A DNA stretch of 60,764 bases, counting the filler, from Hausera hauseri (lineage: Eukaryota), in assembly GCA_046269625.1 (NCBI GenBank). It is 11 parts of 11 records of this genome, joined end to end, with 100 filler letters (N's around TTAATTAATTAA, not from the genome) between each part and the next. Parts side by side here need not be neighbours in the genome. Positions count along the whole stretch, not along the records: positions 5,894 to 13,079 come from JBJURY010032558.1; 10 more parts are not named here. The stretch is one strand, 5' to 3'. Below are positions 1 to 43,226 of this stretch, in pieces (position 1 is the first letter of the stretch; every line of letters begins with the position of its first letter). The notes under the pieces are model-generated. The model was not told the origin of the DNA. It ran no database searches and was given only the letters and a program-made list of their open reading frames with translations. The position numbers and the translations under genes were made by a program.

Positions 1-77
1 GAGTATAAATTGAATCTTCAACGACAATAGCAATCGGAAATTTGGCACTTACATGTGTTTGTCCAAGACGATTTAAG
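1..77 (+). repeat. 77-bp exact terminal direct repeat of contig 1 (second copy 5717-5793)
   Basis: gagtataaattgaatc...ccaagacgatttaag is identical at both contig ends, giving a 5716-bp unit. Confidence 0.95.
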
Positions 78-2371
78 ATAGAATTCTGGGAAATAATACT
101 ACATTAAAGTTGTGCAATTTTATACTCATTTATATTGTTCTATTTATGTTTTCATATAAGACTATGAATAACATAAAATCTGGTATATTGATCTAATTTT
201 CTAATTACTTTGAGAATTTTGATTCTTTCGCTGATTTACATTGTCTGTAAGTAATCATAAATCAAGTTGTTTATGAACAAATCTAAAGAGATTACATATT
301 TATAATGCTCTATTCTTTTTCTCGAATTAGGTACGAGGTCTTCTCCTCGTTTATAAACACACGTGAGTCCTTCTTGGTGGTTCGATGATATTGGTAAATC
401 ACCTACACCTATATTCATTTTCATAGTATCGTAATGAAAATTCTCTGGCCTCAACAAAGAAATTAATGTTATCGTTCTCATAAAATAACTATATGAAATT
501 TGAATTTATAAATTTTTATTTAATAATAAATTACAAGAATAAATCGACTTTAAGTTGTGATTATTCATTTATTGAAGCAAATAATAATTTATTTTTATAA
601 AATGATAATAAAACACCAACAACTGTCTATTTTATCATGGTTGCAATAAATAATAAACACTTAAATTTTGCCCGTAATATTATCTTGGTTATTTGGTCTT
701 TTTTATCGTTCAATCTGTTCATCCCAACGAAGTTGTCCGTTTAATTGATCCTGTCCGTTCATAGTTGTTCGATAATAATTTATAAGAATAGTCGATTAAA
801 TTTGTTGGTGTATGAAACGTCTAGCGGCCTCTAATAACGCTTGTAATTATTTTGATGTATCAACTTCCGGGGTTTCGAGTACTCGATAAATATTTGTTGA
901 CCGTAACTTGGCGTAAATCGAAGGTGGTAATTTTAGTAACACTGCTTTAGTCAGATTAGAAAATTTTCTCTAGCGTAAATAAATTACCTGCAGTAATTGG
1001 AAATAATGCTGAATGTCATAGAATGAGTTTGCCAAAATTATGTCCTAGTAAAATACGTGAATAGTAACTATTGTGTTCAAGTAAAATTGTGAGAGTAGAA
1101 ATTGTGTGTTTTCTATTTCTGATGGTTTATATACCGCCACATATTAGGAATTTTAGAACTTTCCAAAATACAACCAATTGAATTTCGAAAATTCAATTTT
1201 AAAATTAGTCAATCAATGATTGCACGTTTAGATTGAGTCACCATCGTGTGACTTTGTATAATTAAATTTATGATTCATAAGTCATACTGAAATTTTCAAA
1301 ATCTATTTTTTGAATATTTCAAATGTACTAATTAATTAATACATTATAAATTATAATTAATAATAATAATTTTAATTTCAAATCTATAAATCATATTTAT
1401 ATGATCTCGGATTAAATTGAATTTTACATGAATTTAAATTAGACTAGAATTTTTTATATTATTTAAGCTTGACGTTAAAATATTTAATATAATTTTGTTT
1501 TGTAATATTTAAATTTGATATCGCGATAAATAATGAAATGTTATAAATTATTCTTGGTCTGGCATTGAAATATATCAATTTCATCCATAATTCCATTTAA
1601 TCAAAAATGTACCAATTTTATCCAGATTTCCTTTTCCTGTTAAACTTATTTGATTTTTCATTCTGAATAGGAGAATACCATTATTTCCTGCTATATATAT
1701 CCTGGCACTTATAATACTTATACGCATTTATTTTCCTGTTTGTAATTCATTTAATGTTAATTAGTTACTTAGTTACTTTGCCGCCTTTGGTTAACAAGTT
1801 ATGTATATTATACAGAAATGGAGGAAATACCCATCAAGGCGATTAACATCGTCAAAACAGAAAGACATTTACATATACAAGGAATTTATTACTTATACAC
1901 AATATATACAAAAGTCATAGTTAATTAGCCTGCACTGCACAAGATATTTTGCCAATGATTCTTCGCTAAATTTAGATCACAATATAAATATTCATTTGTT
2001 AGTTTGACCGAGTTGTAGGTTTTGTATTGTGTTTCTGAGTTCGAATGTGTTATGCTGATTTTTGAATTTCTATATTTAAGGATTTTGAATTTCGGAGTTT
2101 CATTGATTAAGGACTTTGATTTCGGGCTTTCATTTATTAAGGAATCCTAACAATAGTTAGGATTCCTAATATTATGCAAAACTTTAACAATCAGATAATG
2201 CACTTAAAATCTAAGTTTTTATAATCTTGAAAGAATTAAACAATTTTATACTCATCTGTTGTATTGTCATCCTTTGGGACTGGATTTCTATTGTTATTTT
2301 AATTGTCGCTCATTTGTTTGGAATTCGATCTATTTGATAACAGAAGTAAATTATATTTCAATTCCCATTTT

Positions 2372-2553
2372 TTACTTTTCTTTGCCCTCGATTTCACCAT
2401 TATTGAATTTGTTGAACCAATTTCTACACGTTCTTTCCTTTATTGTGTTTTCTCCCAGAACTTCGTTAATTTTTATCGTAGTCCATATGGCATTCAAAAT
2501 TATGTTTCCAAAAAGTACATCAATTTACGTAGATCTTCTTTATGAAACTCCAT
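2372..2553 (-). pseudogene. Mariner transposase N-terminal HTH remnant
   Basis: Frameshifted translation MEFHKEDLRKLMYF/LNAIWTTIKINEVLGENTIKERTCRNWFNKFNNGE resembles the mariner first HTH (INxxxGxxTxxERTxxxWFxKFxxG). Confidence 0.7.
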
Positions 2554-3702
2554 TTAATTTCTACAACACAAATAGAATTAACTGATTTATATCTTCTTAC
2601 AAGAATCCAATTACGGTATTAATATAAACACATAAAATGAACCAAGCTAAATGCAACCTATCACAACCCTGCATTAATTCATTTATCTTCTAGTCGAAAT
2701 ATTAAATAATGGTAATTATTATAACTATTATAATATGTATAACACTACTAAAATTAGGCAAAAACTTTTCCTCAATCATATATGAATTGAAATCACAAAG
2801 TTGTGGATAGAATGCTTGTGAAAAATGATTCACATACAGTATGGAAAAGAATATATCGGATACACATACATTCGTTATTACACAAAATTTTGTGTAAGAA
2901 ATGTGATCTTTCAGAAATAATATTGAGTAATTCTTTCATAAAAATAACAAATGTTTATTGAACATGCAAGATTTAAATGACATCTATACTATTATTGTTG
3001 ATGAACGTACTCCTGATGTGATTGGTACCCTTACACGTCATCGAATTTTAATAAGTCATTAGAAATGTATATTCATATGAATAAACGTTATAAAGAACAA
3101 TGAAATTTTAAGTTAGTTAATTAACCAGATTGAACGACTACAAAAAATAATTTTATGCCTTCAGGTATGAAGTTTATACGATATATAATCCATAATATTT
3201 CGCTCAATAAAAACTATTAAATCAAAACTGCTCTATATATGGTCCAGCTTATTGGACAAAAATGTAAAGGTCCGATATTGTTAATACTTTATTTATTTAT
3301 TTTATTACTTATTTGTTAATAAAGGTTATTCAAAGGAAAAGTTTGAATAATAAAAAGTTGATAAATTTCCAAATGACTACATTTACAACAATTAAATTTT
3401 CTTGTACGGCAATAAATAAGTTTTACATATAATTTTTTATTTGTATTAAACTATATCAAACTTTTAAAATCATTTTCTTTTTACTATTCATAAAATAAAA
3501 CAACCTGTCAAGCAAAAGGCTTTTCACATAAATATGTTTACGCACGAGTGGAGAACTAAGTGGATATTGTTTGAGTTGGTAAAATATATAAATAAAAATT
3601 TAATAAAGCTATAAACTTAAATCATAAAAATAAACATAAATTATATTTATTTTAATTTAATTCCATTGGTTTTAATAACATTTTCAATTTCTATTACAAA
3701 AA

Positions 3703-4995
3703 TCATCTTTTCTTTCGTGGTTTAGCTTTAGGCCTACATGTCACTGCCCTTTCAGCCTTATTTACTGGTTGCAATCCATTGGATGAATTTGAAGATTGAC
3801 CGAAATTATAGCATGGAATCTGAACTGTATTTGAGATCTGTTTATCTGTGATATCCATCATTTCACAATCATTGTTGAACTGCGATAAGACGGGAAGCAC
3901 ATTTATATTTGAATTTTGGTTTGCTGATAAAATGGATAACTCATTGCTTGTTTTTACATTAATTAGCATTTGGTCACTGTTGGGTATGACTTCATCCCAT
4001 TCCATTGGAGTTGAACAATAAGATTCTTCAACTGGAAGATCATTAATAGAACTTACTTGTTCTTTTAACGACAAGTTTACACTTGGAAGTGTTAACTGTG
4101 GTATTTTATAAAATGTTGTATTATCTGTCTTTGAATTCATGATATCTTGAATTTCAGCTGTCTTTTCCGATGATATTGAACTAACAGTTTCTGTGATTAT
4201 TTGGACATCAATGTTTTCTTCTTTACTCGGTTGTGATACTGGTAAAAGATTATTAACCTTTGCGCTTTCCAATGATGTTTCATCATTTCCCGTAATTTCG
4301 TTTTCCTTCAAAATTGTTGGACATGTTTCAAGTCTTTTTTGATTGCATAACGTATTTTTCAATTCTTCGTAAGATTTTAAGTGATCCATGGTAAATTGGC
4401 ATTTTTGCAGTTTTATGTTGTAATCAGTTAATTGATAAGATTCGGATGCATCAAGAGTTGTAGACACTGAGTCTATCTTATTTTCGGAATTTTTCAGAAA
4501 CGATTCTTCAGTGTTTGTACCTTGTGACTTAAAGGAAACAATTTTATAAATTTCTTTTGGTGTTTTTGATCTTTTGATCCATTGAAATTTGGAACATTTC
4601 AAAGGTTTTCTAATAGGTCCGCAAGATGAATTTTTTCGATTGTCTGAATACATTTTGAGAGAAATTGGGTTTGTTTTATTCAAATTCACGAGTGGATTAT
4701 TTGTTTTCCTCGGAAAATGTAAACTATTTCTTGTTGTTACTGCTTTTTGAACAAAAGAACATTTTGGAGTTGTTACTTTAGAATAAGGTAGGTATCTGGT
4801 ACTTTCATGACGAAAATTCATTTGATTGCTTTTCGTATACGTCGCTAAATTTGAAACTTTCTTCAGAACATTGAAAACGGTTGTTGCATTTGAACAAATC
4901 ATAGACTTTAACATTTTAGAAAAGCTTTGATTTTCTTTATTAGAAACAATCATTATTCTATATGGTCTACTATAAGTTTCTTTCCTATATGACAA
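3703..4995 (-). CDS. Unassigned ~415-430 aa S/N/K/T-rich, probably disordered protein with basic C-terminal NLS-like tail
   Basis: 1.3-kb uninterrupted ORF in very AT-rich DNA ending RPKAKPRKKR; listed start is TTG, first ATG is ~14 codons in; no recognisable domain. Confidence 0.6.
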   Translation of the reverse strand: MSYRKETYSRPYRIMIVSNKENQSFSKMLKSMICSNATTVFNVLKKVSNLATYTKSNQMNFRHESTRYLPYSKVTTPKCSFVQKAVTTRNSLHFPRKTNNPLVNLNKTNPISLKMYSDNRKNSSCGPIRKPLKCSKFQWIKRSKTPKEIYKIVSFKSQGTNTEESFLKNSENKIDSVSTTLDASESYQLTDYNIKLQKCQFTMDHLKSYEELKNTLCNQKRLETCPTILKENEITGNDETSLESAKVNNLLPVSQPSKEENIDVQIITETVSSISSEKTAEIQDIMNSKTDNTTFYKIPQLTLPSVNLSLKEQVSSINDLPVEESYCSTPMEWDEVIPNSDQMLINVKTSNELSILSANQNSNINVLPVLSQFNNDCEMMDITDKQISNTVQIPCYNFGQSSNSSNGLQPVNKAERAVTCRPKAKPRKKR

Positions 4996-5793
4996 ATTTA
5001 ATAACTCGATATTTATTTATTCTGAATACCGTTGGATAACATATAATTGTAAACAATAATTAATATAGTAAATCAAAATCCGTCCAATTTCAAGTCAATT
5101 TAAAATTTTAGTAAATTCTAATAAATTGATATAGTAATTAAATGGATTTGTTACCATATGTCTAGAAGAGTGAAAGAATAAAACTATAGCATTATATAAA
5201 TTTCAAAATAATAAATATGTTCAGAGCCTTATGAAAATGTTGTATTAACTTCTGGTAGCAAATAGAATTAAATTGCATCGGTAGATACAACAATATGTAT
5301 TGCTAGAAAGTCTGTGTAATATAAGAGCTTTCAAAATTTACAAAATAAACGTTCAAAACAAAACGTTGTTTTTACACAAATATTTCAAATCAAATAAGTT
5401 TCATTGAAAAACCGTTTGATGAAATGTCGATCCGACAAAGTTTATAAACAGAAGTTACTTTTAAAGTATTTAACGATAATACTTTTCCATTCGTAATTTT
5501 TTGTTTATAATACTTTGAGTCATTCTAAAATAAATTCCATAATGTGAGAATTTAAGTTATTATTATAAGCTATATCCCTTTCCAATTGAGTGTTTCACTT
5601 TAACATTATGAATCAAAGTTTCATTATTATTTTGAAATTTTAAATTAAATTTCAATAATTATAACCAATACCATTATCATTAACTAGCAATAGAATGATA
5701 TTTACTATTATTTTATGAGTATAAATTGAATCTTCAACGACAATAGCAATCGGAAATTTGGCACTTACATGTGTTTGTCCAAGACGATTTAAG

Positions 5794-5893: not shown

Positions 5894-6370
5894 GATGTTG
5901 CCTTTTGTCCATTGGGGAAATTTGAACTTAGTATCCGAGTTGAATATTTTGAATGGGAGGATTTCTCGATTTCTTTGTTTTCCGTATTTCAATACATTCG
6001 GTATTTTGGTGACGTCTTCTATCCTGTCCATTGAACAATCTAGATGGGCTATCACTTTGTCATAAAATGAATATGACATGTTTCCTTCGATTGTTCTCAG
6101 TCTTTTTAGGCTTTTCGGTGCATCTTCCTTCTTATTTCTTGGAATACTGTCTGGTAATTTGACAATATCTTTACCTCTGAATCTTGGGGCTGAATTTGTT
6201 GCTTTGTTGCTTCCGAATTCCGGAGCATGCTGATATAAGTTTTTTGACATGTTTCTTTTTTCATCTTGCTGAGGTGGAATCTTGCTTCTATATTCTTTTA
6301 ATTCTAATCCGATTGGCCAGCTAATAAATTTTCTAACATTTCGAATTATCTGATCCTCATTGGCTGCCAA
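5894..6370 (-). CDS. Truncated 3' accessory ORF of copy A, weakly similar to the N-terminus of 19738-21243
   Basis: LAANEDQIIRNVRKF vs LSVQDGAEIVQRVKSF, in the same position after the membrane protein; runs into the linker. Confidence 0.45.
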
Positions 6371-6639
6371 TTTATAAATTATATACTATAATATGATTCG
6401 CCCAAACATTATGCTCGTTATTAGTATGTAACTCTTTGTGTTCTCGTTAAAGAAGCTAAGAGTCTTTATTAATTAATTCCCCTTTGACTAGTTTTACAAC
6501 TAAAATAGGGACAAAACAAAATATCGTGTGTGATACTTCATTTCTATCCACTTCATTAATTAACTTTGGGTCTTTAATTGTTTGTTTTCCCATTTCTTTT
6601 TCTTCCTCAGTCTCATTTATTTGTAAGCACTGATGACCT

Positions 6640-8050
6640 CCTTAGACAATAAAATAGTGAGAGTCCTTCATTAATCTCTTCCCGCACTTGGGTTTTCTGC
6701 TTAGTGCAACAAGCATCATAAGGACAATACGGACACTTGTTATCAATATAAACATGCACCAATATTGTAAGATGTATGTTTCAGTAGTCCAGGTCGAAGC
6801 TGTAGTTAATTTTCATTTTTCATCGTCATCATTGTATCTTATGTAGCGATATTGATCTATTGCTGGTTGTGTTTTTATGACTACAATTTTAGAGTTATCC
6901 GAGGTCTCTATCCTCACCAGATAATTGGTGTCTGGCGTTAGTTTTTCACACAAATTTCGCTTATGTGCTTCATATATGATGCTAACTTTATCATGTGAGC
7001 CCGTGCAAGTTATCAAGAGGTTTTGTTCGTTAATTGTGTTTTGCAATATTATCTCAATACGGTCTGTGTACGGCGTTAATTTAAATTTGATAGGGAATTC
7101 TTTCATCCATTTTCCATAAAATACGTGTTTGTGTAATTTTTTCAACGTATACGGCTGCTGATCTTGTATTTTATGCCCGTTTTTTGATTTGGACTGAAAT
7201 TGCGATTTATCTCGATCGCCCCTTCCCTTAATGATAAGTGTAGTCCATAATTTTGGCGCTATCATTATTTTCACAGATCGTGGAGAAATTTTGCGCTGCT
7301 TGGGGTAAGCCGGAATGGGTATATTCAGTTTAACGGAAAAAGATTAGCAATACGGTGAGAGTGCACTCTAATGGATTGTCTATTTTCCAGCGTTTGGTAT
7401 GCATCCAAACAAATTCTGTACCAGATGTATAGATAGAGTGTACAACATAAACGAGTGTCATTTCTCTTAAGATAACAATAATGTGGTTTTAGTATGGATG
7501 TACAGATTGGGTCGAGCCATATGCTGATTTCCAATTCATACGGTAATAGCTGTGAAGTGCGGAAATTCACGCAAGGAGATTGTCTTGTAAGATCGATACT
7601 GGAAATCTCAAGGAATTGAGTAATAAAAGGGTTATGCGAAAATACATCGGAAGTTTCCAATATGTTCATCTCTCGGTAAGTAGGAACGTGAAGAATCATA
7701 TTTGGCTCCGAAAGAATGGTATTGGTATTGTTAACTTTCAATGCTACGTAATACGTGTAAGTCTGAACATAATTGACGGAGCAAAATGTTTTATTATGCA
7801 TGGCAAGAATTGTACAGACAGAGGAAACATTATGTTTTGATATAAGGACAAAATCAACCGTGTGATGTCTCATTATAGGTAGGTGAGTTCGAAGGCAAAT
7901 ACTGGGTTTATGTGCATCTATACTGATAATCGTAGTTAGTTCAATCAATTCAGCCTGCAGCGTAATCGTGATATTTCGGTTAATGTCAGCGATCGTAATA
8001 GGTGTTAAGAGAGTGAGGGAAAGGAGGATGAAAGTACCCAAGTATTTATT
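6640..8050 (-). pseudogene. Post-integrase type I membrane protein (signal peptide, two Cys-containing beta repeats, FN3-like domain, TM), copy A
   Basis: In frame with integrase: YLGTFILLSLTLLTPITIA; HYCYLKRNDTRLCCTL; LTPDTNYLVRI; hydrophobic WCMFILITSVRIVLMMLVALSRK near 6700-6770. Confidence 0.65.
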
Positions 8051-8169
8051 AAAAGTGGAGTGAACGGGGCAATATTCTGAGGTGCTCATCGGGTGAATTT
8101 TGAGCAATGCCGCTATTTTGGGTTCTTCCGTTTTGGGTATTTCTAGCTCTGTTTCGTAGATGAAATCGT

Positions 8170-9433
8170 TGTATGAAGTAGGTGCTCGGGTTACTCGTTG
8201 AACAGACACAACCTTGTATTTATTGGGCCCTTTCTGAATAAAGAGTGTCTGTGGGCGTACATCGACAACTTTGTACGGTCCTTGACCTGTACGTGTTAAT
8301 TTTAACGATTTGCCTTTCTTTACCACGGGGTAGTGAATCATGACGTAATCCCCAATTTTATAAGTATGTAGTCGTGCCTTTTTGTTAAATTGCTTTTTAT
8401 ATCCGGCTCTATAGTTTTGTTCAAACTCTTGCTTCTTTTGGAAAATATTCGAGTCGTTTGAGCAAATTCTGGTATTGTTCATCCATATGATCACCGGTTA
8501 ACAAGGTTGATTTTAATAATTCCGTATCTAATTGTAGTAAAGGTAATCGTCCGAACATTAACTCAAAAGGTAAATGATTGGTACTTTTGGTAGGTGTAGT
8601 ATTGATTACAAAGGCCGTGGTTTTCAGACGATTGTGCCAATCTTTTTCATTATGCGCTACATTTGTAGAAAGAATACGCTGAATAGTACGATTAATCCTT
8701 TCGATCATACCGTTACATTGAGGATGGTATGATGTCGTCAATAAATGTTTGCATTGGAATATTTTTGATAAATTTTCAAAGAATTCGCTAATGAAATAAG
8801 GTGCACGATCAATTAACAACTGTTTCGGGGTGCCTAGTACGGCAATGATTTTATAAAAAAAGGTTTCAGCGACTGTACTACTGTTCATGTTTTTTAATGG
8901 TACCAGTACAACGTAGCGAGAGAAATAGTTAACAAGTGACAGTATGTATTTGTATCCTGAGTCCGAAATCGGGAATGGCTCAGAGATGTCCATTGCGCAC
9001 ACTTCCATTGGCCTACGAGCTTCAGGTAAGCATCCTACAAACGGTTTGATACAATGTCCTCTATCTTTCCCATTCTTACCTATTCTTCAATATGTTTATT
9101 CATTTGAGGCCAATAATATTTAGCAGTTATACGCTTCAACGTCTTACTTAAAGACGGATGGCCAGCTAAGTGTGAATCATGTTCTTGAAGCATGATGGCT
9201 TTGATGGCCGGTGAAGGCACCACAAACAGTTTTCGTTCTCCGACTCCGAGTCGTAAAATGCCATCTTGAATTACTAAGTTGGCTCGGTTCTTTTTATAAA
9301 ACTTTTGAATGTGGTTTGATGCCGAGTCAACTATTTGTCCATTGATTAATTGTTTGATTTGAACAATAAAGGGATCTTGGTTTTGTAGAGTCTCGATATT
9401 TCGCACTTGGATTTGGCGCTGTTCTTGTAGCAT
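8170..9433 (-). pseudogene. Gypsy-type integrase (copy A)
   Basis: EHDSHLAGH..YYWPQM; AMDI..YILSLVNYFSRY; YHPQCNGMIER; PFELMFGR; GPYKVV. Confidence 0.92.
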
Positions 9434-9479
9434 GCTATATTTACTTTCAAATGTTTATCGCTCTCATTGTCTATGGATT

Positions 9480-10385
9480 TAAAAGCTTCGGCTACTATTC
9501 CTTCTTATGGCATTCTTGAAAGAGCATCGATGTCCTTGTTTTTTTGCCGGGACGATATCGATACTCGAAATCATAATTCAAGAGTTCCAACTTCCATCTT
9601 TGGAGTCGACTTGATACATGTCTATTGTCTGAGCGTAGGATAATAGTGCCTTATGGTCAGTAAATATTATAACCTTATGACCGTAGACATAATATTTGTA
9701 ATGTCGCAGTCCGTCACGGCTTGCTAATAGTTCTAATTCAGTAGTTGAGTATTTCCGCTCTGCATTATTCAAGCTACGTCCACCGTAGGCAATTACATAT
9801 TCGGTTGTTTCTTCTGGATTTTGTTTAGCTAATATAAAACTAATGGCTTTAATGCTAGCATCGGTTTTTAAAATGAATGGTAGTGAAAAATCTGGGTACC
9901 TCAATATTGGTGCTGACACCATTCGTTTTTTAATTTCATAGAATGCGTTTTGGTTCTCTTCGGTCCATTCCCATTTTTGGTCTTTCCGTAATAATATATA
10001 CTGAGGTTGATTAATTTCTGCAAAGTCGGGAATGAAGGTAGCATGAAATTCTCCCAATCCTAACAATGCTTTCATTTCATGCACATTGGTTGGAGGGGAT
10101 ATTGCAGTATTTTAGTTACTAACTCAGGGCTAGTTGATATACCTTTATTGGAAACGACAAATCCCAGGTATCTAACCTCCTTCTTACACCATTCACATTT
10201 CTTGGGTTTAATTTCAATTTAGCAAGTCTGATTCGGTCGAATACTTACTTCAATTCCGCTAAATGGGCAGATCATGTCTGGGACGCATTAAGGATATCGT
10301 CTATGTACGATAATCCTCGCACGCCTTTTAGTACTAGACGAATGAACTCTTGGAAGAAAGTGGGTGTCGTCTTTATGCCAAATGG
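9480..10385 (-). pseudogene. RT C-terminal half (N-terminal half deleted) and RNase H (copy A)
   Basis: VPFGIKTTPTFFQ, SYIDDIL, KCEW..KEVRYLG, FILKTDAS, VIAYGGRSLNNAERKYSTTELELL, FTDHKAL. Confidence 0.9.
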
Positions 10386-10699
10386 AACATTAAGTGTGTC
10401 TTCAACATTATTATATTCCGCTGTTGATGTGGTCGTAACTTTGTTGTCGTATTTCTCTTGGCGTGTAGTCTCCAGGGCTTGTCCAATTTGCGTTTTAGTG
10501 AATATCGTGACACATCTTGGATTGGGATGTAGAACTTCTACGGGAATGGTTCCTCCAATTACTTTAACGCAATAATGTGGTTTCGGTACGAATTCGATCA
10601 CACTGTTGTCTGGGAATATCGTTCTGGCGTGTATAACCATTCTAGAGGTGGGTGGTATTTTCTCAACATGTCTGTTTTGTTGTAATTAGGGGGTTTATC

Positions 10700-11045
10700 A
10701 TCATTATTTGGGCAAATTGATCCCAATTGTAGGTTTAAGTGTACACATTCTAATTTTCGCAACACGTTCATACCCAAAATGCATCGCGGATCCAAGATAA
10801 CCATTACATCAAAAGTTATTTTGACTCTGTCCGCAAATCCATGGTTCACATTTCCAGTATCCATAAGGTATACTGCATTGGTGGAAGGCCGAAGTAGTAC
10901 CAGGCGAGCCTTTAGTAGCCAATTTTATTTGAGATTGTAAGTCTTCCGGAATTGCATGTTTTGCTATTAATGCAACGTTAGCTCCAGTGTCAACCATAGC
11001 ATTTAGGTCGAAACTATCAAAGTAAACTGTGGGGTGAGGTCAATT
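10700..11045 (-). pseudogene. Retropepsin aspartic protease (copy A)
   Basis: AMVDTGANVALI and downstream CILGMNVL. Confidence 0.85.
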
Positions 11046-11699
11046 ATCCCGTATCAGCTCGAGAAACGTTAATACTTCGTTATGATTATCTATATGTGGT
11101 TTCATCAAGCTGTATCTAGCTGAACAATATCGGGTAGTGCCACTTGATAATATAACCGGTAAACTTTCCAAAATTAAGTATTGTTTTCCACTTCTTTCAC
11201 TCCCTCTTTGAGTTCAGTCAGGTTTGGGTAGCAACTTACACGTTGTAATGTTGTGTTTTGCTTACTAACGTATTCTAAGGTCGTTACATGGGGTTATCTA
11301 TGTACTTGATCTTTCATTAATCGGTTTGTCTGGTGATAAGGTAAAGGTGGCAATATACCTAACTTAGGTGATGTAGGTAATGTTACACGGTTGTTTTCCA
11401 TGTTTCGTGTTATAATGGATTGACGTATCTCTTCCTGAGAGTATTTTGGTAAATTACACAGTTTTATATACTCCTCCATTTTTCCATACGAGTCCTTTAT
11501 GTCTGTTAATATTGGTAATTTACAAATGAACACTGTTCTATTCTCATATGGCGCAGCAAGTGATTTGGGTCTATTTTTCTCCTTTGATTTCATAAACCTG
11601 AATTTCCATTTCGTATCTTTTGTAATCCTTGTGGTATGATAGTATCCAGGAGCATTCTTATCATCGGAACTATACGGGGTGTCCCTTGAAAGTTGCTTC

Positions 11700-13079
11700 T
11701 TCGATTTATAATCGACATGTTTTCTATTTTACCTCACCATTGTTTCTCATGGTAAGCTTTAATGAATTTACCAAATGTGGAAAATGGAGCATTTATTATG
11801 CTTAGAGATACTCCTGTTAAGTTGTAGATCTCATAGGCGTTTAATACAAAATTGATACAGATATTCAAGGTCTGTATAATGAAGTATATGGCCAGAAACC
11901 CACAGGCTACTTGGTCAAATCTCAGGAATCCGCCACACATATTATACCACAAATTTGAAACGATTTTAGTATAGGCGTCAGGTGTCTACAACCGGTCCCA
12001 TTTTACTTCTCCGGCTGTGTCGTCGATTACTCAGTGTATTTTGCGATTTACTATTCGTTCTCTCCGTCGAGGATATGCTAAAGACTTCACAAATGAGTCC
12101 ATTTCTTTTTTGCTTTATAATTCGGATTTGGACACGTCCGTAAACATATTGATTTCAATTGCATGTTTCAAATTCGCCATGGTCAATTTCTTCGGTCTTT
12201 CTTTAACTCTTTCACGGTCCGGTAATCTAACCCAAAGATCCTGATTATCGTACTTTATAAATGGTTTATTCAGTTCTGAACAATTTTGGATTTCGGTGGG
12301 TATTGTATGTGGCGCTAGAAGTACTCTGGTAATCAGTTGAACATATCGGATTTCTTCATTATACCTAACAGGTATCTCAGAGTAACATGGAGTACGCCTA
12401 ATCAAGAGTAGGTCTATTCTTTCACATTTGTATGTATATAGCACTTCTCCTAGGACTCTGCCCCGAATTCCTTCGACGAAAGGGAGGGTTATTGTGATCA
12501 TTTCTGGGTTAGATGAGTATATGGCCAAACGGTTTGTCAAAGTTTCAAAATTCATTCTGAAAAATTTTGAATGGTCTAAGAGTATATTTCGTCAATTGCT
12601 TTGTGAGTTAGATAAAACAAAAAATCATCAAGGTGTGCGATATAATCGGCAATATTCATTGACTGGGCTTTGTTAATGGGAGGATTATCCGCACATTTGA
12701 TCTCTCTTTTCGATATAAAATAATTATCGTAATTAGTATTGTACACTTGTTGTCCGCATTTTGTAATCGCGTCTTGTTGTATAAATTTGACTCCTCCTTT
12801 AATATCCTTAGATATCACAATTTTAGGAGTTTTTACTTTAGGAATAACTTAAATATTGGTATGCTCGAAATTAGTCTTATAGTGACGGGCATAAATTTTT
12901 CCTGTGGTTACAATAAATTCTCCTTTTCTGATTTGTACAAATGTACAATCATGCCTTGTGGGGGGGTGTCCACACTATTGTAAATATTCTAGTATGACAA
13001 TGTCCAGTTTGCAACTTACAAAAAAATGCGTCTACCACTGTGTTTGTACTAATCCTTAATTTCGTCCTCGTACTGGTCA
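11700..13079 (-). pseudogene. Chuvirus/gB-like fusion glycoprotein, C-terminal part (copy A)
   Basis: GRVLGEVLYTYKCE, CYSEIPVRY..RYVQLITRVL and TM FLAIYFIIQTLNICINFVLNAYEIY; collinear with 58062-59240. Confidence 0.8.
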
Positions 13080-13179: not shown

Positions 13180-16100
13180 ACAGTTGCGGATACCTGCAAA
13201 TTCGGAATCACCGCAATCAATTTAGTCGAAAAGAAATTTGGACTGACCCAGATCCGAACACCTGCATCTTCGAAATCAATGCAATGAGTTTAGTCGAAAA
13301 AAATATTGGAATGACCCAGTTCGGACACCTGCATATTTTGACTCACCAAAATGAGCTGCTTCGAAAAAAATTTTGGACTTACCCGGTTCAGGACACCTGC
13401 AAATTCGCACTCATCGCAATGAATTGAGTCGGAAAAATTTTGGACTGACCCAGTTCGGGATACTGGCATATTAGGATTCGCCAAAATGAATTGAGACGAA
13501 AAAAGATTTGGACTAACCCAGTTCCAAACGCCTGCATATTCGGACTTACTGCAATGGGTTGAGTCGAAGAAAATTTTGACTGACCCAATTCGGGACACCT
13601 GCAAATTCGGACTCACTGCAATTAATTGAGTCGAGAAATTTTGGACTGGCTCAGTTCGGGATACTTGCATATTGGGATTCACCGCATTGATTTGAGTCGA
13701 AGAAGATTTTGGACTGACGCAGTTTAGAGCAGCTGATAATTAGGACTTACTGCATTTAGTATAGAAAGAAAATATTTTGGAATGTCCAAATTCCGGGTAC
13801 CTGCTTATTTGGATTCACTGCAATGAGTTTAGTAAAAAAATTTTTTGCCATGATCCAGGTCCGGAAACGTGCATATTCGGAGTCACTGCAAACAGTTTAG
13901 TCGAAAAACGTTTTGGAATGACCCAGTTCCGGACACGTGCGTATTCGGATTCAACGCAATGAGTTGAGTCTGAAAAAGTATAGGAGTGACCCAGTTCGGA
14001 CACCTGCATATTTTGACTCTCCAAAATGAGTTGAGTCGAAAAAAATTTTGGACTGACCCAGTTCAGGACACCTGCATATTTTGACTCACCAAAATGTGAT
14101 AAGTCGAAAGAAAATTTGGACTGACCCAGTTCCGGACACCTGCATATTCGGATTTACCACAATTAATTGAGTCGGAAAAATTTTGGTATAGCCCAGTTCG
14201 GGATACTTGCATACTAGGATTCACCATAATGAATTGAGACGAAAAATTTATGGACTAACCCTGTTCCGCACACCTGCATATTTTGATTCACCAAAATGAG
14301 TTGAGTCGAAAAAAATTTTGGGCGGACCCACTTCCGGATAACTGCAAATTAGGATTCACCGTAATTAATTTAATCGGAAAAATTTTGGGCAGAGCAAGTT
14401 CGGGATACTTGCATATTAGGATTCACCGCAGTGAGTTGAGTCGGAAAAAAATATTTGACAGAACCTGTTCCGCACACCTGCATATTTGGACTCATTGCAG
14501 TGAGTTTAATCGCAATAAATTTGGGTCTGACCCAGTTGGGCACATACAAATTCAGACTCACCGCAATGAGTTGAGTCGAAAAAACTTTCTGACTGACCCT
14601 GGTCCTTACGCCTGTATATTTTGACTCAATGAAATTAGTTCAGTCTAAAAAAATTGATGAATGACCCAGTTTCGGACACCTGCATATTCGTACTCGCCGA
14701 AGTATATTAAGTCGAAAACATTTTTGACTGACCCAGTTTCGGACACCTGCATATTTTGACTCACCAAAATGAGTTGAGTCGAAAAAAAATTTGGACAGAC
14801 CCACTTCCGGATAACTGCAAATTAGGATTCACCGCAATTAATTGAGTCGGAAAAATTTTGGACAGACACAGTTCGGTATACTTGTATATTGGGATTCACC
14901 GCAATGAATTCAGTGGAAAAGAAATTTGGAATGACCCTGCTCCGCGCACCTGCCTACTGGGACTCACTGCAATGAGCTTAGTCGAAAAACGTTTTGGACT
15001 GACCCAGTTACGGACACCTGCAAATTCGGAATCACCGAAATGAGTTGAGTCGAAAAAAATTTTGGAATGATCCAGTACCAGACACCTGCAAATTCGGCAT
15101 CACCGCAATGAATTTAGTCGAAAAAAATTTTGGACTGACCCAGTTCCGGCACTTCAATATTCGGACTCACTGCTATAGGGTTAGTCGAAAAAATTTTTTG
15201 AATAAATCAGTTCCGGACACCTGAATATTCGGAATCAATGCAATGACTTTAGTCGAAAAAAAATTTCGGACTGACCATGTTTCGGACACCCGCAATTTAG
15301 GACTCACCTCATTGAGTTGAGTAAAAAAAAATTTTGGACTGACAAAGTTGCGGACACCTGCATATTAGGACTCATTGCAATGAGTTTAGTCAAAAAGAAA
15401 TTTGGACTGACACAGTTCCGGACACCTGCATATTGGTAATCAATGCAAAGACATTAGTCGAAAAAAATTTTGGAATGACTCAGTTCCGGAAACTGCATAC
15501 TCGGACTCACTGCTATCAGTTTAGTCGAAAAAAGTTTTTGAATAATCCAGTTCCGGACACCTGCATATTCGGAATCAATGCAATGACTTTACTCGAAAAA
15601 AATTTTGGACTGACACAGTTGCGGATACCTGCAAATTCGGAATCACCGCAATCAATTTAGTCGAAAAGAAATTTGGACTGACCCAGATCCGGACACCTGC
15701 ATCTTCGGAATCAATGCAATGAGTTTAGTCGAAAAAAATTTTGGAATGACCCAGTTCCGCCACTTGAATATTTGGACTCACTGCAATGAGTTGAGTCGAA
15801 AAAATTTTGGCTTGATCCAGTTGCGGACACCTGCATATTCGGACTCACCGCAATGGGTTTAATCAAAAAAATTTCGGATTGACCCTGTTCCGGACACCCG
15901 CAATTTAGGACTCTCTGCATTGAGTTGAGTAGGAAATATTTTTGACTGACACAGTTCCTGACAACTGCATAATCGAACTCACTGCAAAGAGTTTAGTCGA
16001 AAAGAAATTTTGAATAAACCAGTTACGGACACGTGCATATTCGGACTCACTGCAATGGGTTGAGTCGAAAAGAGTTTTGAATGACCCAGTTCCGGACACA

Positions 16101-17875
16101 TGCATATTCGGACTTAACGCAGTGAGTTTAATCGAAATAAATTTTGGACTGACCGAGTTCCGCACACCTGCATATTCGGACTCACTGCAATGAGTTTAGT
16201 CGAAAAATTTTTGAATAAACCAATTCCGGACACGTGCATATTCGGATTCGACGAAGTGAGATTAGTCGAAAAAAATTTTGGACCGAACCAGTTACGGACA
16301 ACTGCATATTCGGACTCACTGCAATGAGTTTAGTCGAAAACAAATTTGGACTGAGCCAGTTCCGGACACTTGCATATTTGTACTCTTTGCAATGAGTTCA
16401 GTCGAAAAAAATTTTTCACCGACTCAGTTCCAGACACCTCGATATCCGACTCCCCTCATTAAGTTGAGTCGAAGAAAATTTTCGACTGACGCAGTTACGG
16501 ACACCTGCACATTTGTGCTCACCGCAATGAGTTTAGTCGAAACAAATTTTGGAGTGACCCAGTTCTGGACACCTGCATATTCGGGCTCACTGATACGAGT
16601 TTAGTCGAAAAAATATTTTGAATAAACCAGTTGGGGAGACGTGCATGATCGGATTCTACCAAATGAGTTGAAAAAAAAATTTGTACAGACGCGGTTCCGC
16701 ACACCTGCATATTCAAACTCACTGCAATGTGTTGACTCAAAAAAAATTTTGAACGACCCAGTACCGGACACCTGCATATTCGGACTCACCGCAGTGAATT
16801 TAAACGAAATAAAGTTTGGACTGACACAGTTCCGGACACCTGTAAATTCGGAATCACCGCAATACATTTAAACAAAAAAAATTTTTGTACTGAGCCAGTT
16901 CCGGACACCTGCATATTCGGAAACAATGCAAGACTTTAGTCGATAAAAATATTGGAATGACTCATTTCCGGCAACTGCGTATTCGGACTCACTGCAATGA
17001 GTTTAGTCGAAAAATTTTTTGAATAAACCAGTACCAGACACGTGCATAATCGTGTTCGACGAAATGAGAATAGTCGAAAAAGATTTTGAACCGACTCAGT
17101 TCCAGACACCTCCATATCCGACTCCCCTCAATGACTTGAGTCGAAAAAATTTTCGACTGACGCAGTTACGGACACCTTCACATTTGTGCTCACCGCAATG
17201 AGTTTAATCGAAACAAATTTAGGAGTGACTCAGTTGTGGACACCTGCAAATTCGGAATCACCGCAATTGGTTTAATCGGAAAAAATTTTTGACTAGACCA
17301 CTTCACGACACCTCCAAATTCGGCCCTTCCGAAAGGTGTTGAGTCGGAAAAAATGTTCGACTGATTCAGTTGCGGACACCTGCATATTCGGACTCACCGC
17401 AATAAGTTCAGCATGAAAAAATTTTGGACTGATCCAGTTGCGGACACCCGCAATGTAGGACTCATTGCATTGACTTGAGTAGGAAAATATTTTGGACTGA
17501 CACAGTTTCGGACACCTGCATATTCGGACTCACTGCTATGAGTTTAGTCGATAAAAATTTTTGAATAAACCAGTTCCGGACACGTGCATATTTGGATTCG
17601 ACGAAATGAGTTGAGTCGAAAATAATTTTGCACAGTCCCGGTTCCGCACACCTGCATATTCGGACTCACTGATACGAGTTTAGTCGAAGAAAAATTTTGA
17701 ATAAACCAGTTGGGGAGACGTGCATGATCGGATTCTACCAAATGAGTTGAAAAAAAAGAAATTTGTACAGACGCGGTTCCGCTCACCTGCATATTCGGAC
17801 TCACTGCAATGTGTTGACTCAAAAAAAATTTTGAACGACCCAGTACCGGACACCTGCATATTCGGACTCACCGCA
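13180..17875. repeat. Satellite DNA, ~68-69 bp monomer, roughly 68 copies, fills the whole contig
   Basis: Consensus approx. GAGTTGAGTCGAAAAAAATTTTGGACTGACCCAGTTCCGGACACCTGCATATTCGGACTCACTGCAAT, head to tail. Confidence 0.97.
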
Positions 17876-17975: not shown

Positions 17976-18073
17976 AAGTAGGTCAACAGCAGAGATGATT
18001 GGAGACACCAGGAATCGCGAGAGGTGGAGATCCATGACATCCTGTGCTTCGCCGCACGGCACCTGATGATGAT
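17976..18073 (+). mobile_element. 3' end of an RTE-like non-LTR retrotransposon
   Basis: AEMIGDTRNRERWRSMTSCASPHGT* followed by a (TGA)n tail. Confidence 0.7.
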
Positions 18074-18345
18074 TATTTCTGAACACACGAGCCGTGTTTC
18101 CAACACACTGAATGTCGCCCGTGTGACTTCCTAGCCTTAAGCTTGGTTTGATTGTGCATTCAGCTTGCTTCAGCATTTAGTCTTCGTTTATTTCTAACGT
18201 AGTCATTATATTTTGTTTATTCAGTAACATCTAGTTTTGAATTACAGAAAAAGGAGAATCAAGCGTCAACCTGGAGGTCCGGTGTAGAAAGAGCGGAAGA
18301 CAAGAGATAGGTCAGAAAATGGTTTACACATAAATTGATGAACAG

Positions 18346-18460
18346 AAAAGACCAAGAAGAACATGGATAGACAACGTGAAGAAGACTCCCCAAGTGCTAA
18401 AGATCAACAATTTGGAGAAAAAGACCAAAGACAGAGAAATGTGGAGGCGCATCGTTCAAG
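18346..18460 (+). mobile_element. Second RTE-like LINE C-terminal remnant
   Basis: KRPRRTWIDNVKK...KTKDREMWRRIV matches the RTE GRP..W...DR..WR motif. Confidence 0.6.
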
Positions 18461-18856
18461 TGTACGCTATCGAAGAAACAAGGATTACATCTTTCCAAAC
18501 ATTTCTTTTAAATAAAATTACTTCTCACCAACTACACATTAACTTTTTTCCCTACACTCATCTAACCTGATACTCTTTCTCTCTCCCTCTTCGCCTAGCA
18601 AAGTACTCTCTTCGACTATTAACCCTCCCCCGGCCTCAGAACATAAATATACTATTTCAGCAAACCAGATTTTTTTGTAACATTTCGTACAAAATTCATG
18701 AAGAACGGACCTTGTGTAACAACTGAACCAGATTCCCCAATAACTAGGTATTGAACAATTAAATATACAATATTTAATAAAACAGATACGATAGAGTGTA
18801 GACCTTTCTATCAAAATCCTCATCTATGTTGTTTCATATCCTTTGATAAGGAATAT

Positions 18857-19741
18857 ATGATATGGTATTGGACAGGATTGAAAACGAATGGTGGCTGGAA
18901 ATGGTCGGATGGATTAATAGGTCCAGAAGTAATAGTGAGATCACCGAGAATAACAACTGCTACTACAGCAACGATGACTTCTATCATGGACTTAACGACA
19001 CAGAAACTGACTAAGGATATGAACGTTAATAGGAAACTGGATATAACCATACAGTCGATGCCACATTCTCTCATTATTACGGCATCGAACTTGAAAAATA
19101 CAAACATAAAATTTGAGTGTTTTCTTTATGACAGAATGATTAGTGAAGGAATTATAACCCCAGATGAGCCTACATCAGCCTGTATGTTCCTAAAGGCTAA
19201 TACAAATTATAAAGTTGTTATAACCGAACTAGATGAAGAAGGACAGAAACTACAGACAATCTATCGTATGGGAAGAACGTTAAACCAACCTATTATAACG
19301 ACCGTGAATACCATAAAAACGGTAACTGCACAAAATTATATAAATAATTCCAATATATACCTACGGATAATAATCATATTATGTGTATTCTTAGTATTAA
19401 TAGCTGTGTTATTACCCTTAATAATTTACTATTCCAGAATAAGATACAGGAGGCGCAAGACCCAAAATATTATACAACAGCTAAAATTATTAAGGGACGA
19501 TTCCCAAAATGATACGGGTAATGAAATAGATGCGCTTTTCCAAGCTGAGAAGCTACCAGATTCTAAACGGCCATCTCAACCGTTAACAGATGTTACACTA
19601 TGTATGTGTACATGTACAAAAGATGAGGCTGAAAAATTTTTGGCGACCTACCAAAATAAAACCAATTATAAAACACCCAGGCTGCAAAGCTTTGTGCAAC
19701 CTATCATAGAATTTTTCGAAACTTTTCATGGCTATTATTGA
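18857..19741 (+). CDS. Type I membrane protein C-terminal part: C-type-lectin-like end, Thr-rich stalk, FN3-like domain, TM, cytoplasmic tail
   Basis: YWTGL..GGWKWSDG; TTATTAT; LKANTNYKVVI; IIIILCVFLVLIAVLLPLIIYY followed by RIRYRRRK; 5' part disrupted. Confidence 0.7.
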   Translation: MIWYWTGLKTNGGWKWSDGLIGPEVIVRSPRITTATTATMTSIMDLTTQKLTKDMNVNRKLDITIQSMPHSLIITASNLKNTNIKFECFLYDRMISEGIITPDEPTSACMFLKANTNYKVVITELDEEGQKLQTIYRMGRTLNQPIITTVNTIKTVTAQNYINNSNIYLRIIIILCVFLVLIAVLLPLIIYYSRIRYRRRKTQNIIQQLKLLRDDSQNDTGNEIDALFQAEKLPDSKRPSQPLTDVTLCMCTCTKDEAEKFLATYQNKTNYKTPRLQSFVQPIIEFFETFHGYY

Positions 19742-21243
19742 TATATTTTCTTTCAGTCCAAGACGGTGCCGAAATCGTCCAACGAGTCAAATCTTTTTAT
19801 TATAACGTCGCTTCTAATCTCAATTCCACCCAACATAAAGACTATATATATTACGGGAAAGCATCCCTAATACCTAATAATATCAAAGGTCATTTGGTCA
19901 CACAGAGAGCAGGATTGATCATTAAATTACCTAATGCAGCAACCAGATTGTCAGATTTAGTAGACACATCCGCGAAAACAACCTTCGTTTATATATCAGT
20001 CATCAGAGCAAGCCTACAATTGAAAAGTAGAAGTCATCAGACCGATATAACAGATCAACTCAATGTAACTCCCTTCTCGACAATTCGTTTAGATCATCGT
20101 CTCTATAAGAATGCCAACATAACATTACGAACCTTTGGAGGACCTAATCCCATTCTATACATTGAGGTTACCAGGAGGGAGAAAATCTCTCATCCAGAAT
20201 ACGATATACCAATTTTTAATACACCTCTTCCAAACAAATCCGAATTAGAAAAAGGATGTTCCTTCTCTAGAATTTCTCCGGTTCCTAGAAGCCAAGTTGT
20301 TATTGTATCCACAAATGTTGCATATTTGATCAAGGACAATAGTTCTCAAGCTACACTTATAGAAATTACCATAATGGATTTAGAGAAAAAAATCCTCCTC
20401 GATCAGCTTATTACCACACGAGGACGCGTAGATAATTACAATACGCAAATAACCGGAATACGGGAAGTAGACTTAATCGGCCAAGCCGACCAATACCAAA
20501 TTTGGCCTATGATTAGATATCATTTAGTAGGAAAAATGATTGTATCAATGGATATATTTAATATCAATTCACAAATTGCCCTCTTCAATACGGATCGTAT
20601 AATGGGTATCCGAGATTTGTATTACCATGATGTAATAAATCCCAAGAAAACATTAACCCTAAAACAAGTTTTCTTAAAATTCAATAATATTATATATCCA
20701 ACACGGACAAAGGATAAAGCATTGGTCATTCTTAATATCTATAACAGTCTAAAAGAATATCAACATCAAGATGTGGAGACAAATCTGATACCAACAGCAC
20801 ACAACATTTCAAATGAACACTCCACTTCCCTTACTTTATCTGATGACAAGATCCATTCATTTACTCCAGAATTAATGGATATAACCGATTCCTTCAATAC
20901 AACAGAACTACAGATCAATACATCAGCTATTGTCGATCTGATTGAAGAATCGCCGATCGCTCGACCAGGACCTTCAACAAAAGCCCAACCTGACCTTTCA
21001 GCAACTGTTATACCTGATAAACAGATAGTTGTTGATTCAACAAAGAAAAAAAGAAAAATGCCCAAAGAAGATACCATTACTTTAAAACTGAAATTCAAAC
21101 AGAAAGGCTTATGGCGACAATACGAATCGTCTAATTATCGTGTAGAAAACGAAACCTTAGAAACCTACCCAGCAATGCTGAGGACAGCATTGTCTGAGGA
21201 GGGAAATATTAGGGAATCTGATATCAAATGTGATCAAAAGTGA
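19738..21243 (+). CDS. 501-aa protein with REXO4/ISG20-like DEDDh exonuclease domain (~20287-20745) lacking catalytic residues
   Basis: LLDQLI..RVDNYNTQITGIREVDL, LVGKMIVS and IRD align by eye to REX4-type exonucleases; the DxE position reads STN; intact ORF (TTG start listed). Confidence 0.7.
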   Translation: MIYFLSVQDGAEIVQRVKSFYYNVASNLNSTQHKDYIYYGKASLIPNNIKGHLVTQRAGLIIKLPNAATRLSDLVDTSAKTTFVYISVIRASLQLKSRSHQTDITDQLNVTPFSTIRLDHRLYKNANITLRTFGGPNPILYIEVTRREKISHPEYDIPIFNTPLPNKSELEKGCSFSRISPVPRSQVVIVSTNVAYLIKDNSSQATLIEITIMDLEKKILLDQLITTRGRVDNYNTQITGIREVDLIGQADQYQIWPMIRYHLVGKMIVSMDIFNINSQIALFNTDRIMGIRDLYYHDVINPKKTLTLKQVFLKFNNIIYPTRTKDKALVILNIYNSLKEYQHQDVETNLIPTAHNISNEHSTSLTLSDDKIHSFTPELMDITDSFNTTELQINTSAIVDLIEESPIARPGPSTKAQPDLSATVIPDKQIVVDSTKKKRKMPKEDTITLKLKFKQKGLWRQYESSNYRVENETLETYPAMLRTALSEEGNIRESDIKCDQK

Positions 21244-30911: not shown

Positions 30912-31064
30912 CGCAATGAGTTGAGTCGGAAAAAATTTTGGACTGACCCAGTTCGGAACACCTGCATATTCGGACTCACCGCAACGAGTTGAGGCAGAAA
31001 AATTTTTGGACTGACCCAGTTCGGGACACCTGCATATTCGGACTCACCACAATGAGTTGAATCG
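30912..31064. repeat. About 2.3 copies of the 68-bp satellite monomer
   Basis: Monomer starts at 30917, 30985 and 31053; same consensus as 13180-17875. Confidence 0.95.
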
Positions 31065-31150
31065 GGGAATTTCAAACACCCATAAACAAACCAAAAGCAT
31101 TAACCTAACAGCAACAAAATAATATATTTCACAAAATAGAATTAATTTAA

Positions 31151-36539: not shown

Positions 36540-37700
36540 AGTTACGGAAACACCTACGACGACGTGGTCACAAATACTGCGTCGCAGGAGATTTGAACCT
36601 GAAAATGTGTTGTACTACGAACGAAAGGGACGAAAGTTAGTCGTTATACCAAAAGGATTACGTGCAGAAGTACTAATGGTCAAACACGACTCATACCTAT
36701 CCGGACACATGTCGTGGAAGAAAACATTGGAAAGAATATTAAATAAATATTATTGGCCGAGTATTTACGTCGACTTGAGAAATTGGGTGAATGCTTGTGA
36801 GGTATGCGCAAGCAAAGAGAGAAAAGTTGAGAATTACATCACCGAACTGAAACCCATCAATGTGCCGGATAGACCAATGCAGGCAATGTTCACGGATATT
36901 GTAGAACCATTGCCTACGACTCACAAAAACAACAGATACATCTTGACTTGTGTAGACCGATTGACTCATTTCGTTGTGCTCATTGCGTTAATAGACTAAA
37001 AGGCTGAGACGTTGGCAGAAGTAGTCGTCCGAAAAATTATTTGCAGATTTGGGCCGCCTGAACAAATTTTGACAGACCGAGGGAGAAACGTTACGAGCGA
37101 ACTGTTCAAAAAATTACCAAAATTTTTAAAATCGAGTGACTAACCACAACAGCTTATCATACCCAATGTAACGGACTGGTTGAACGGATGAACGCGGAAG
37201 TTACACAAATCTTATCAACAGTAGTGGCAAAAGACCAGAAAGATTGGGACGAGTTCTTAGAAGGTACACATTTTGCCATTAATACTACCCCACATCCTGC
37301 AACGGAATTTACTCCGTTTTTCATGACGTACGGTCGAGAAGCTGTACTGCCTACAGATTTAGGACTGATTCCATATACAACCAGAACGGAAGACTTAAAG
37401 CAAAATTTTGTCGAAGTATTACAATTGAGATTACACAAGTGTCGCAAAATAGCCAAGGAATTATCTAAAGAATACCAGGAACAATTTCTGAAGCAGTACG
37501 ACAAGAAGGCTAAATCACACTACCTAGAACCGGGAAATTTGGTTTACGTATACTATCCAGTAGCAAAGAAAGGCACATCTCTTAAACTTACCATGACAGG
37601 CAGAGGACCTCATGAAGTTACCAAAACTACACCAACAACGGTTTATATAAATAAAAACGGCAAGGAGGAGATCATATCGATTCAAAGAGTAGTTAGAACG
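36540..37700 (+). pseudogene. Gypsy-type integrase (copy D)
   Basis: HHCC finger, TDIVEPLP..YILTCVDRLTH, TDRG, YHTQCNGLVERMN, TPFFMTYGRE. Confidence 0.92.
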
Positions 37701-37799
37701 GAAATAAGACCAAACAAACGCTATAATTTGCGTTCGAGCAAAACAAAATCGGACTATACAAATAAAGAAAAGAAAAGGTCGTCGATAGTGACTAGACCA

Positions 37800-38729
37800 A
37801 TATCGTATGTACAAATATTCCTCGCCTTATCGTTAATCGCTTTGTATATACCAAAGACAAGGTCGATAACCCCAACAGAAAAATACAATATGCAGCAAGA
37901 CAAAGGGATATCCAAAACTTACAGTCACTGAGAGTGTACGATATGGATTGGAGCAAACCTTGTGCGTGGTTCGAAGCAAGTGAACCTATTGAGAGCCATG
38001 TGAAATTTCACATAATATTTGTAACTAGATCCACGATTAGAACATGCGATTTTCCGCATGGAGTTCATAGGAAATGTTGCGATTTGGATTTCGGACAAAC
38101 CTACCGATACAGATTTTAAATTTTCTATTATAACCAACCCGATGCCCAAGCCTATATAATTACGGAGCTTCTAATAAGGATGCCTCAAAAAATGACACGA
38201 ATCGAGCCAAGACGGAGGAGATAATCCAAAATACTGACTTATTTAAAAGGCTCTTAAATTATAACATTATTGGGATTTTCAAGGACTTAAAAAACCAATG
38301 TATTCGAATTGAGACCAAAATAGAACTGCCAGGAGACAGAAAAATTTTTGTCCGATTTATACCATTAAACGCCTCAGTTCTTATTCCCGAGTATTGTTAT
38401 CTTGCACGACGACAGACTACCTTGTGCTGTAGATTAAAGTTAGGACATAACTACCAGTTACAGTTTGATCTGTACAACACTGATCTTAAAGAACCGAGTA
38501 CTTATTTACGGGGATACCGCCAAAAAATTGGAATATGGAAACTCCCATTCCCAACTACTACGAGGAAACCGTCTACAGTCACAAGTACCACTCTCACCAC
38601 TGCTATCGTCACTTCGGATGAAATGGAGGAAACATACCAGTTAAGATTTTGGCAAAAAGTGATAAAATTCTATTTTACGCTGAAGAAACGTTGAATCAAG
38701 ACTTCAAAATTGAATGTCGCACCCTGCAC
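37800..38729 (+). pseudogene. Post-integrase membrane-protein ectodomain (copy D)
   Basis: YVQIFLALSLIALYIPKTRS in frame with integrase; repeats KPCAWF..TCDF..KCCDL...Y and NQCIRI..EYCYLARRQTTLCCRL...Y; Thr-rich stalk. Confidence 0.7.
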
Positions 38730-42975: not shown

Positions 42976-43040
42976 ATTGTTATTGGCACATTGGTACTGA
43001 ATATTTGATTTTTCGACTTGGTAAAGGAAATTACGTGCAC

Positions 43041-43226
43041 TTAATGGACATTGTAAAAGTCTTCATAATTGGATTTGCACAGTACTTCACATGTAGGGCA
43101 TATATAATACTGAACCCAGTTGTACATATGGCTGAAATACTTCTTCATAAAATTGTGGCAATTTTCAGGCTCATGGATTTGAGCCAAGCATTCTTTGTAA
43201 AGTTCGCAGATATAAAAATCAAACAA
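43041..43226 (-). CDS. Small Cys/His-rich ORF upstream of pPolB
   Basis: CLAQIHEPENCHN..H.YN..YYICPTCE..F..VH; homologue at 32558-32725. Confidence 0.55.
   Translation of the reverse strand: MFDFYICELYKECLAQIHEPENCHNFMKKYFSHMYNWVQYYICPTCEVLCKSNYEDFYNVH

Follow-up and report, generated by a model that had tools for sequence, protein, structure and literature searches.

The window, as we call the whole stretch of 60,764 nucleotides of Hausera hauseri DNA analysed here (GCA_046269625.1), is made of 11 unlinked contigs joined through spacers of the form N44-TTAATTAATTAA-N44, and adjacency across a spacer is meaningless. Two retroelement remnants are of main concern, copy A on the minus strand of contig 5894-13079 and copy D on the plus strand of contig 34393-38729, both of these contigs ending within the element. 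An initial reading of the DNA without database searches, the sequence-only reading, had taken A and D for copies of one element. That view had to be given up: the two are 47% identical in the integrase core and 44% in the integrase tail (tail z 29), a DNA-level match is nearly absent, and A and D are decayed Ty3/gypsy elements of distinct lineages on unlinked contigs. A third contig, 52451-60764, which carries gag (zf-CCHC), a ubiquitin-like domain and a gB-type env, is tied to copy A through env (E 1e-14) and to copy D through a 295-residue region (E 6e-58).

Other contigs of the window hold further features. Contig 1-5793 has the same 77 bases at both ends, as would be expected of a tandem unit or of a loop in the assembly, and a 437-residue ORF without a Pfam match. 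A 68-base satellite fills contig 13180-17875, and about two of its units also lie inside another contig at about 30912-31072. Contigs 31939-34292 and 41513-43826 have 2.36 kb in common at 79% identity, and their ORFs look like what we take to be remnants of Polinton/Maverick-type DNA polymerases.

The class of the elements can be read from their remaining genes. In copy A, a gB-type (class III) env remnant at 12118..12591 (-) (PF24664 E 1.5e-15), homologous to the env pieces on contig 52451-60764, lies upstream of pol. The pol region comprises broken RT, RNase H and integrase Zn-finger pieces at 9080..10685 (-) (RVT_1 E 0.0026, below the cut-off; RT_RNaseH_2 E 3.5e-30; Integrase_H2C2 E 1.1e-12) and an integrase core at 8421..9086 (-) (rve E 2.1e-11) with a frameshift before its tail, and the order RT - RNase H - integrase given by Pfam is that of Ty3/gypsy LTR retrotransposons. 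On contig 52451-60764, the gB-type env (PF24664 E 6.6e-12 and 6.6e-13) is entered via an in-frame hydrophobic stretch, with five same-frame ORFs at 54640-57741, and the ubiquitin-like domain (PF00240 E 9e-6), which is in frame with the start of env, occurs on this contig only. No single contig holds gag, env and pol together, and D has no env; the gag - env - pol order was pieced from two contigs, env standing before pol in A and gag before env on 52451-60764. Because the gag-env contig is linked to both A and D, we assign the family to the GAG-ENV-POL type, an order known from flatworm, bryozoan and nematode elements according to the available part of the errantivirus survey (PMC13524379).

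The region 52647-60764 (+) runs from gag with one Zn knuckle through a long helical region, the ubiquitin-like domain and the hydrophobic stretch to env, after which a protease-like region can be made out by eye, and its layout is Burro-like. BIR, ankyrin, MATH and BCL2-like domains were found in none of the 29 ORFs scanned with Pfam, the elements being fragmentary. Copy D appears to have suffered an internal deletion at 34393-36451 (+), where RNase H comes nearly straight after a gag-side region with homology to 54961-55845. Copy D is without env, protease and RT, yet it has retained the cassette that follows the integrase.

This post-integrase cassette begins at the integrase C-terminus. In copy A, ORF 7325-8497 (-) starts with a GPY/F-type C-terminal module (8186..8497, with GPY at 8270-8281) and carries, all in a single frame, the integrase tail, a linker of 47 residues, a hydrophobic stretch and two Cys repeats. 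Over 241 codons it has no stop, where shuffles have 13.8, and 0 of 10,000 shuffles were stop-free. In copy D, the end of the integrase core, the tail (in which GPH replaces GPY), a linker of 36 residues and the signal-like stretch (37806-37853) share the frame of ORF 37140..37931 (+), which stops about 25 codons past the hydrophobic stretch, before the repeats. The sequence-only reading was therefore right in that no stop lies between integrase tail and hydrophobic stretch in either element; the tidy ORF that it described for copy A is open from the tail to repeat 2, but a frameshift lies between it and the integrase core.

The hydrophobic stretch has the character of an internal signal peptide. 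Its h-region in copy A (7988..8044, -) consists of 19 uncharged residues with a maximal KD15 of 2.17 and small residues at -3/-1, and both lineages have a 19-residue uncharged core at the same position with a maximal KD15 of about 2.2. When thresholds for uncharged length and KD15 were taken from the observed values of the A and D stretches themselves, both were reached by a single one of 202 windows taken as background from pol and gag proteins. The two stretches align with each other at chance level, their score being reached by 448/2000 shuffles. Judged from its hydropathy and its -3/-1 residues, the pattern fits a putative cleavable signal peptide of a type I protein.

How such a protein would be expressed is suggested by what precedes the stretch. 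Copy D has no Met from the integrase to the hydrophobic stretch, and before the stretch neither A nor D has an AG with more than 6/12 upstream pyrimidines that could serve as a splice acceptor. For these two reasons a Pol fusion is favoured, and we regard it as reasonably likely that the surface protein is made in this way. Separate expression keeps some place beside it because in copy A a Met (8089) 15 codons ahead of the h-region would give an ordinary 34-residue signal peptide. On that account, the surface protein would be a separate accessory gene, expressed from a start of its own or from a spliced RNA and sharing the integrase frame by chance. Such an origin would agree with the usual gypsy layout, in which the env ORF stands apart from pol and 3' of it, as seen by eye in the metagenome loci L002, L005, L007 and L010, and with sORF2, which other gypsy elements have as an accessory TM protein (10.1101/2025.03.14.642691, as far as available). 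However, it is hard to reconcile with D, which is without the Met, with the fact that neither lineage has a stop after the integrase, and with the weakness of the acceptor candidates, and we consider it unlikely. In the same four metagenome loci, included as controls, a chromodomain-like tail closes the integrase frame, and a separate signal-bearing ORF lies behind that frame (by eye).

The two Cys repeats lie behind the signal-like stretch in copy A, repeat 1 at 7700..7939 (-) and repeat 2 at 7328..7657 (-), the latter with a frameshift at its end. In copy D, repeat 1 (37937..38200, +) is in a second frame and has one stop inside, and repeat 2 (38245..38550, +) is in a third frame (ORF 38134-38694), in which translation shows a Thr/Ser-rich stalk at 38551..38694 (+) before the contig ends at 38729, ahead of any TM. 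The proposal of two Cys repeats in frame behind the stretch thus applies to A, whereas in D they occupy two other frames and are not part of ORF 37188-37931. Both repeat motifs quoted in that proposal exist, at 7436-7483 (-) and 38389-38436 (+), and the conservation claimed for the repeats is borne out by the alignments of A with D: repeat 2 scores 119 (z 17.7) and repeat 1 gives z 6.8, in each case with 0/2000 shuffles reaching the value, and the C..C..Y columns are common to the repeats. Within D, the aligned score of repeat 1 with repeat 2 was reached by 1/2000 shuffles; within A, the alignment of the two repeats is at chance level (1370/2000).

Third codon positions of repeat 2 agree between A and D at the background level (0.26, against 0.27 expected), whereas the proteins match strongly; this argues that the protein has outlasted the saturation of silent sites. 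For the same reason, a dN/dS between A and D is not usefully computable. Identity by codon position, with its excess at first and second positions, was also considered as a proof of selection and was rejected, as 25/115 codon shuffles reach the repeat-2 value and the signal is largely an alignment artefact; codon shuffles aligned alike give position identities of 0.40/0.50/0.30.

The distribution of the cassette was followed in public data. The copy A stretch occurs in one public sequencing run, X1, which may be its source. Contigs of this run cover all 30 bins of copy A (n=5,292, of which 4,311 are less than 95% alike), and one diverged contig spans 7804-8218, that is, the linker, the signal and the beginning of repeat 1, differing at 71 letters and without a gap. 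This cover and the gap-free diverged contig make the cassette part of a multi-copy family. The public-run search listed no RNA run carrying the copy A stretch. Word-based protein searches, covering proteins of up to 2000 residues, gave 0 matches for the whole copy A ORF and, among longer proteins, 0 for its residues 150-390. The repeats occur in 0/12 pol proteins that match the integrase of D (word-based search) and in 0/12 metagenome gypsy loci, and no relatives of the cassette were found among viral contigs.

Taken as a whole, the post-integrase cassette is very probably a real conserved ectodomain. It is highly improbable that it is a piece of a host FN3 gene, captured and riding along without function. 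Both copies are broken in the cassette and FN3 domains are common in animal genes, as such a capture would have it; however, frame breaks are about as frequent in pol, where copy A has at least five between 8421 and 10924, so that those in the cassette fit a general decay. The similarity of the protein beyond silent-site saturation, the family-wide cover by the contigs of run X1 and the 241 open codons without intron-like gaps also speak against a functionless passenger.

The fold of the repeats was approached with an alignment (A2) of five repeat pieces without breaks, of which four come from A and D and a doubtful one from contig 17976-22069; C, C and Y are invariant in this alignment. Folded with this alignment, D repeat 2 gave a seven-strand model with a pLDDT of 70.5, whereas ORF 7328-8497 of copy A, folded from its single sequence, reached 30.9. 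In Foldseek, 41 of the 43 matches listed for the D repeat 2 model were FN3 proteins by their titles, ranks 1-3 being cytokine receptors, with a best E of 5.5e-3 and nothing at E 0.001. In VIA-align over 48,161 chains, FN3 proteins made up 46 of the 50 matches listed, again by titles, and the best Z of 8.7 (rmsd 3.2, 91 aligned) barely exceeds 7-8, a range that the tool calls common. Cytokine receptors (Z 8.7, 8.2 and 8.1) are tied there with fibronectin (Z 8.3 and 8.0), at 6-17% identity. A viral structure library returned weak, mixed matches to the model. Atlas gave an FN3 lead of 0.76 with low recognition, and nothing useful for D.

The assignment to FN3 rests on the consistency of the matched class rather than on one match. 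With the FN3 domains of fibronectin, cytokine receptors and Robo/LAR, the modelled repeat has in common a seven-strand sandwich (Z 7-8.7, rmsd about 3 A, about 90 residues); it differs from them in an identity of 2-17%, in the absence of a Pfam fn3 match in the repeats and in a Cys pattern of its own, and a PDB sequence search with alignment A2 gave 0 matches. The invariant Tyr of the repeats presumably occupies the position of the FN3 tyrosine corner. On the strength of the models, the Cys repeats probably have an FN3 fold. The prediction that these repeats are FN3 folds is new here; the sequence-only reading had given FN3 to the third domain instead, and the Foldseek check that it proposed points to FN3 in the Cys repeats, with no match at E 0.001.

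Contig 17976-22069 was tried as a source of a cassette homologue and was not accepted, its leave-one-out E being 0.49 and its score being reached by 65/1000 shuffles. In its segment 18755-21243 (+), an ORF of 328 residues combines a Cys motif with Thr-rich stalks, a beta-rich domain and a strong TM (KD19 3.57), and next to it lies a 523-residue ORF weakly like DEDDh exonucleases (SDN1 E 0.34, ISG20 E 0.7), without the first catalytic acidic motif. This segment could represent the 3' end of a related element. A PDB sequence search with the contig-3 domain gave chance matches only.

Behind its repeats, copy A has a basic linker and a third beta-rich domain at 6813..7343 (-), in an ORF of another frame than the repeats that ends in a stop. 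The domain is FN3-like by eye only; it has no significant match in Pfam or among PDB sequences, and its score on the repeat profile was reached by 127/1000 shuffles. A predicted TM at 6702..6776 (-) (KD19 2.53) follows, then basic residues and a tail that ends at a stop near 6642. The FN3-like domain and TM reported earlier for copy A are thus upheld for the TM, which is separated from the repeats by a frameshift and a stop, but not for the third domain. Farther on, at 5894-6560 (-), lie more hydrophobic stretches and a 164-residue ORF without a Pfam match.

The earlier conclusion that the element encodes two membrane proteins gains from the PF24664 fusogen, the shared signal-like stretch, the conserved predicted-FN3 repeats and the TM in A; its weak link is the frame, as both copies are broken and we infer that it was once continuous from the integrase to the TM. 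In working elements, the Pol frame would have continued through the repeats to the TM. Gag would be cytosolic, a hydrophobic stretch would open env, and the TM of env would bring the chain back, so that Pol would again be cytosolic. The second hydrophobic stretch would then thread the repeats into the ER lumen, where their cysteines would pair, until the TM with its basic inner flank stops transfer and closes the ectodomain. Host signal peptidase would free the N-terminus of the ectodomain, and the integrase would remain anchored in the membrane by the cut signal peptide until the protease of the element or signal-peptide peptidase releases it, as in hepatitis C core. There, too, the signal peptide of the following glycoprotein forms the end of a cytosolic protein (PMC5402940, in the part available), although the virus is unrelated and the analogy is one of mechanism only. 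The mature protein would be located next to gB, either on particles or on the cell that produces them, and bind the target cell.

FN3 folds serve many roles, and whether that of the repeats is attachment or another one we consider evenly balanced. Attachment is favoured by the architecture, a stalked, membrane-anchored FN3 array in an element whose class of fusogen needs partners in herpesviruses (PMC13524379, in the part available). In the same part of that survey, the entry of gB-type errantiviruses is unexplained, since herpesviruses need gD, gH and gL. The full proposal, a tandem predicted-FN3 type I membrane protein that is cut from Pol and acts as partner of the gB-type fusogen in attachment, is one that we put forward tentatively, at a little below an even chance.

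The same protein, processed in the same way, could instead be a decoy or a modulator of host signalling, a cytokine-receptor-like tandem FN3 comparable to the host-manipulating cargo of planarian Burro. The presence of cytokine receptors among the top fold matches of both structure searches would suit such a function, but fibronectin is tied with them in VIA-align, where identity is low throughout. The second FN3 of a class I cytokine receptor module is marked by a WSXWS motif, and this motif is absent from the A and D repeats in alignment A2. The available part of the Burro description lists BIR, BCL2-like and ubiquitin-like domains (PMC6431247), the last of which has a counterpart on contig 52451-60764. 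All in all, a modulator seems to us rather unlikely, and we return to the attachment partner in comparing the elements with known systems.

The closest of these are the Platyhelminthes GAG-ENV-POL errantiviruses of the HSV/gB type, Smed_errantivirus_1-6, which likewise have a gB-type env upstream of pol, and the end of the copy A env resembles, by eye, the six planarian Platyhelminthes_C1a rows of supplement 2 (PMC13524379), a likeness that points to a probable flatworm host. The available part of that survey describes no protein behind the integrase of the Smed errantiviruses, gives Smed_6 only as 'no chromodomain', and contains 0 mentions of 'fibronectin' or 'accessory'. The giant planarian elements Burro / GYPSM1 also have an in-frame env between gag and pol, a ubiquitin-like domain and a long cargo polyprotein (PMC6431247). 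They exceed 25 kb, the elements here being known from short fragmentary contigs, and carry a cargo of their own (MATH, BIR, ankyrin, BCL2-like, dUTPase-like), and no FN3 or post-integrase membrane protein is described in the part of the article available. The sORF2 of MDG1-group retrotransposons is similar in kind, as a gypsy element encodes it as an accessory transmembrane protein and it promotes cell-to-cell spread; however, it is a short fusogen in env-less elements, whereas the protein considered here is a multi-domain ectodomain beside a gB env and in the integrase frame (10.1101/2025.03.14.642691, as far as available). Our literature search, which did not extend to Grohme 2018 and the Repbase entries, turned up no report of an FN3 protein encoded behind the integrase of a gypsy element.

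As a wider generalization, flatworm gB-type retroelements would make one polyprotein with two ER-membrane crossings, yielding a gB fusogen and, off the end of the integrase, a tandem-FN3 receptor-binding protein like the attachment partners of herpesvirus gB; this is possible, though we think it doubtful. The conserved predicted-FN3 membrane protein is nonetheless a candidate for the open question of how gB-type errantiviruses enter cells without herpesvirus partners, as that question stands in the available part of the survey (PMC13524379). The cassette sits where surveys checked only for chromodomains, and six annotated planarian elements are available in which to look at the same position. 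If the proposal is true, the Pol of a retroelement would end in a signal peptide, with its integrase tied to the membrane, and the family would gain a second cell-surface protein, a possible attachment partner of its membrane-fusion protein.
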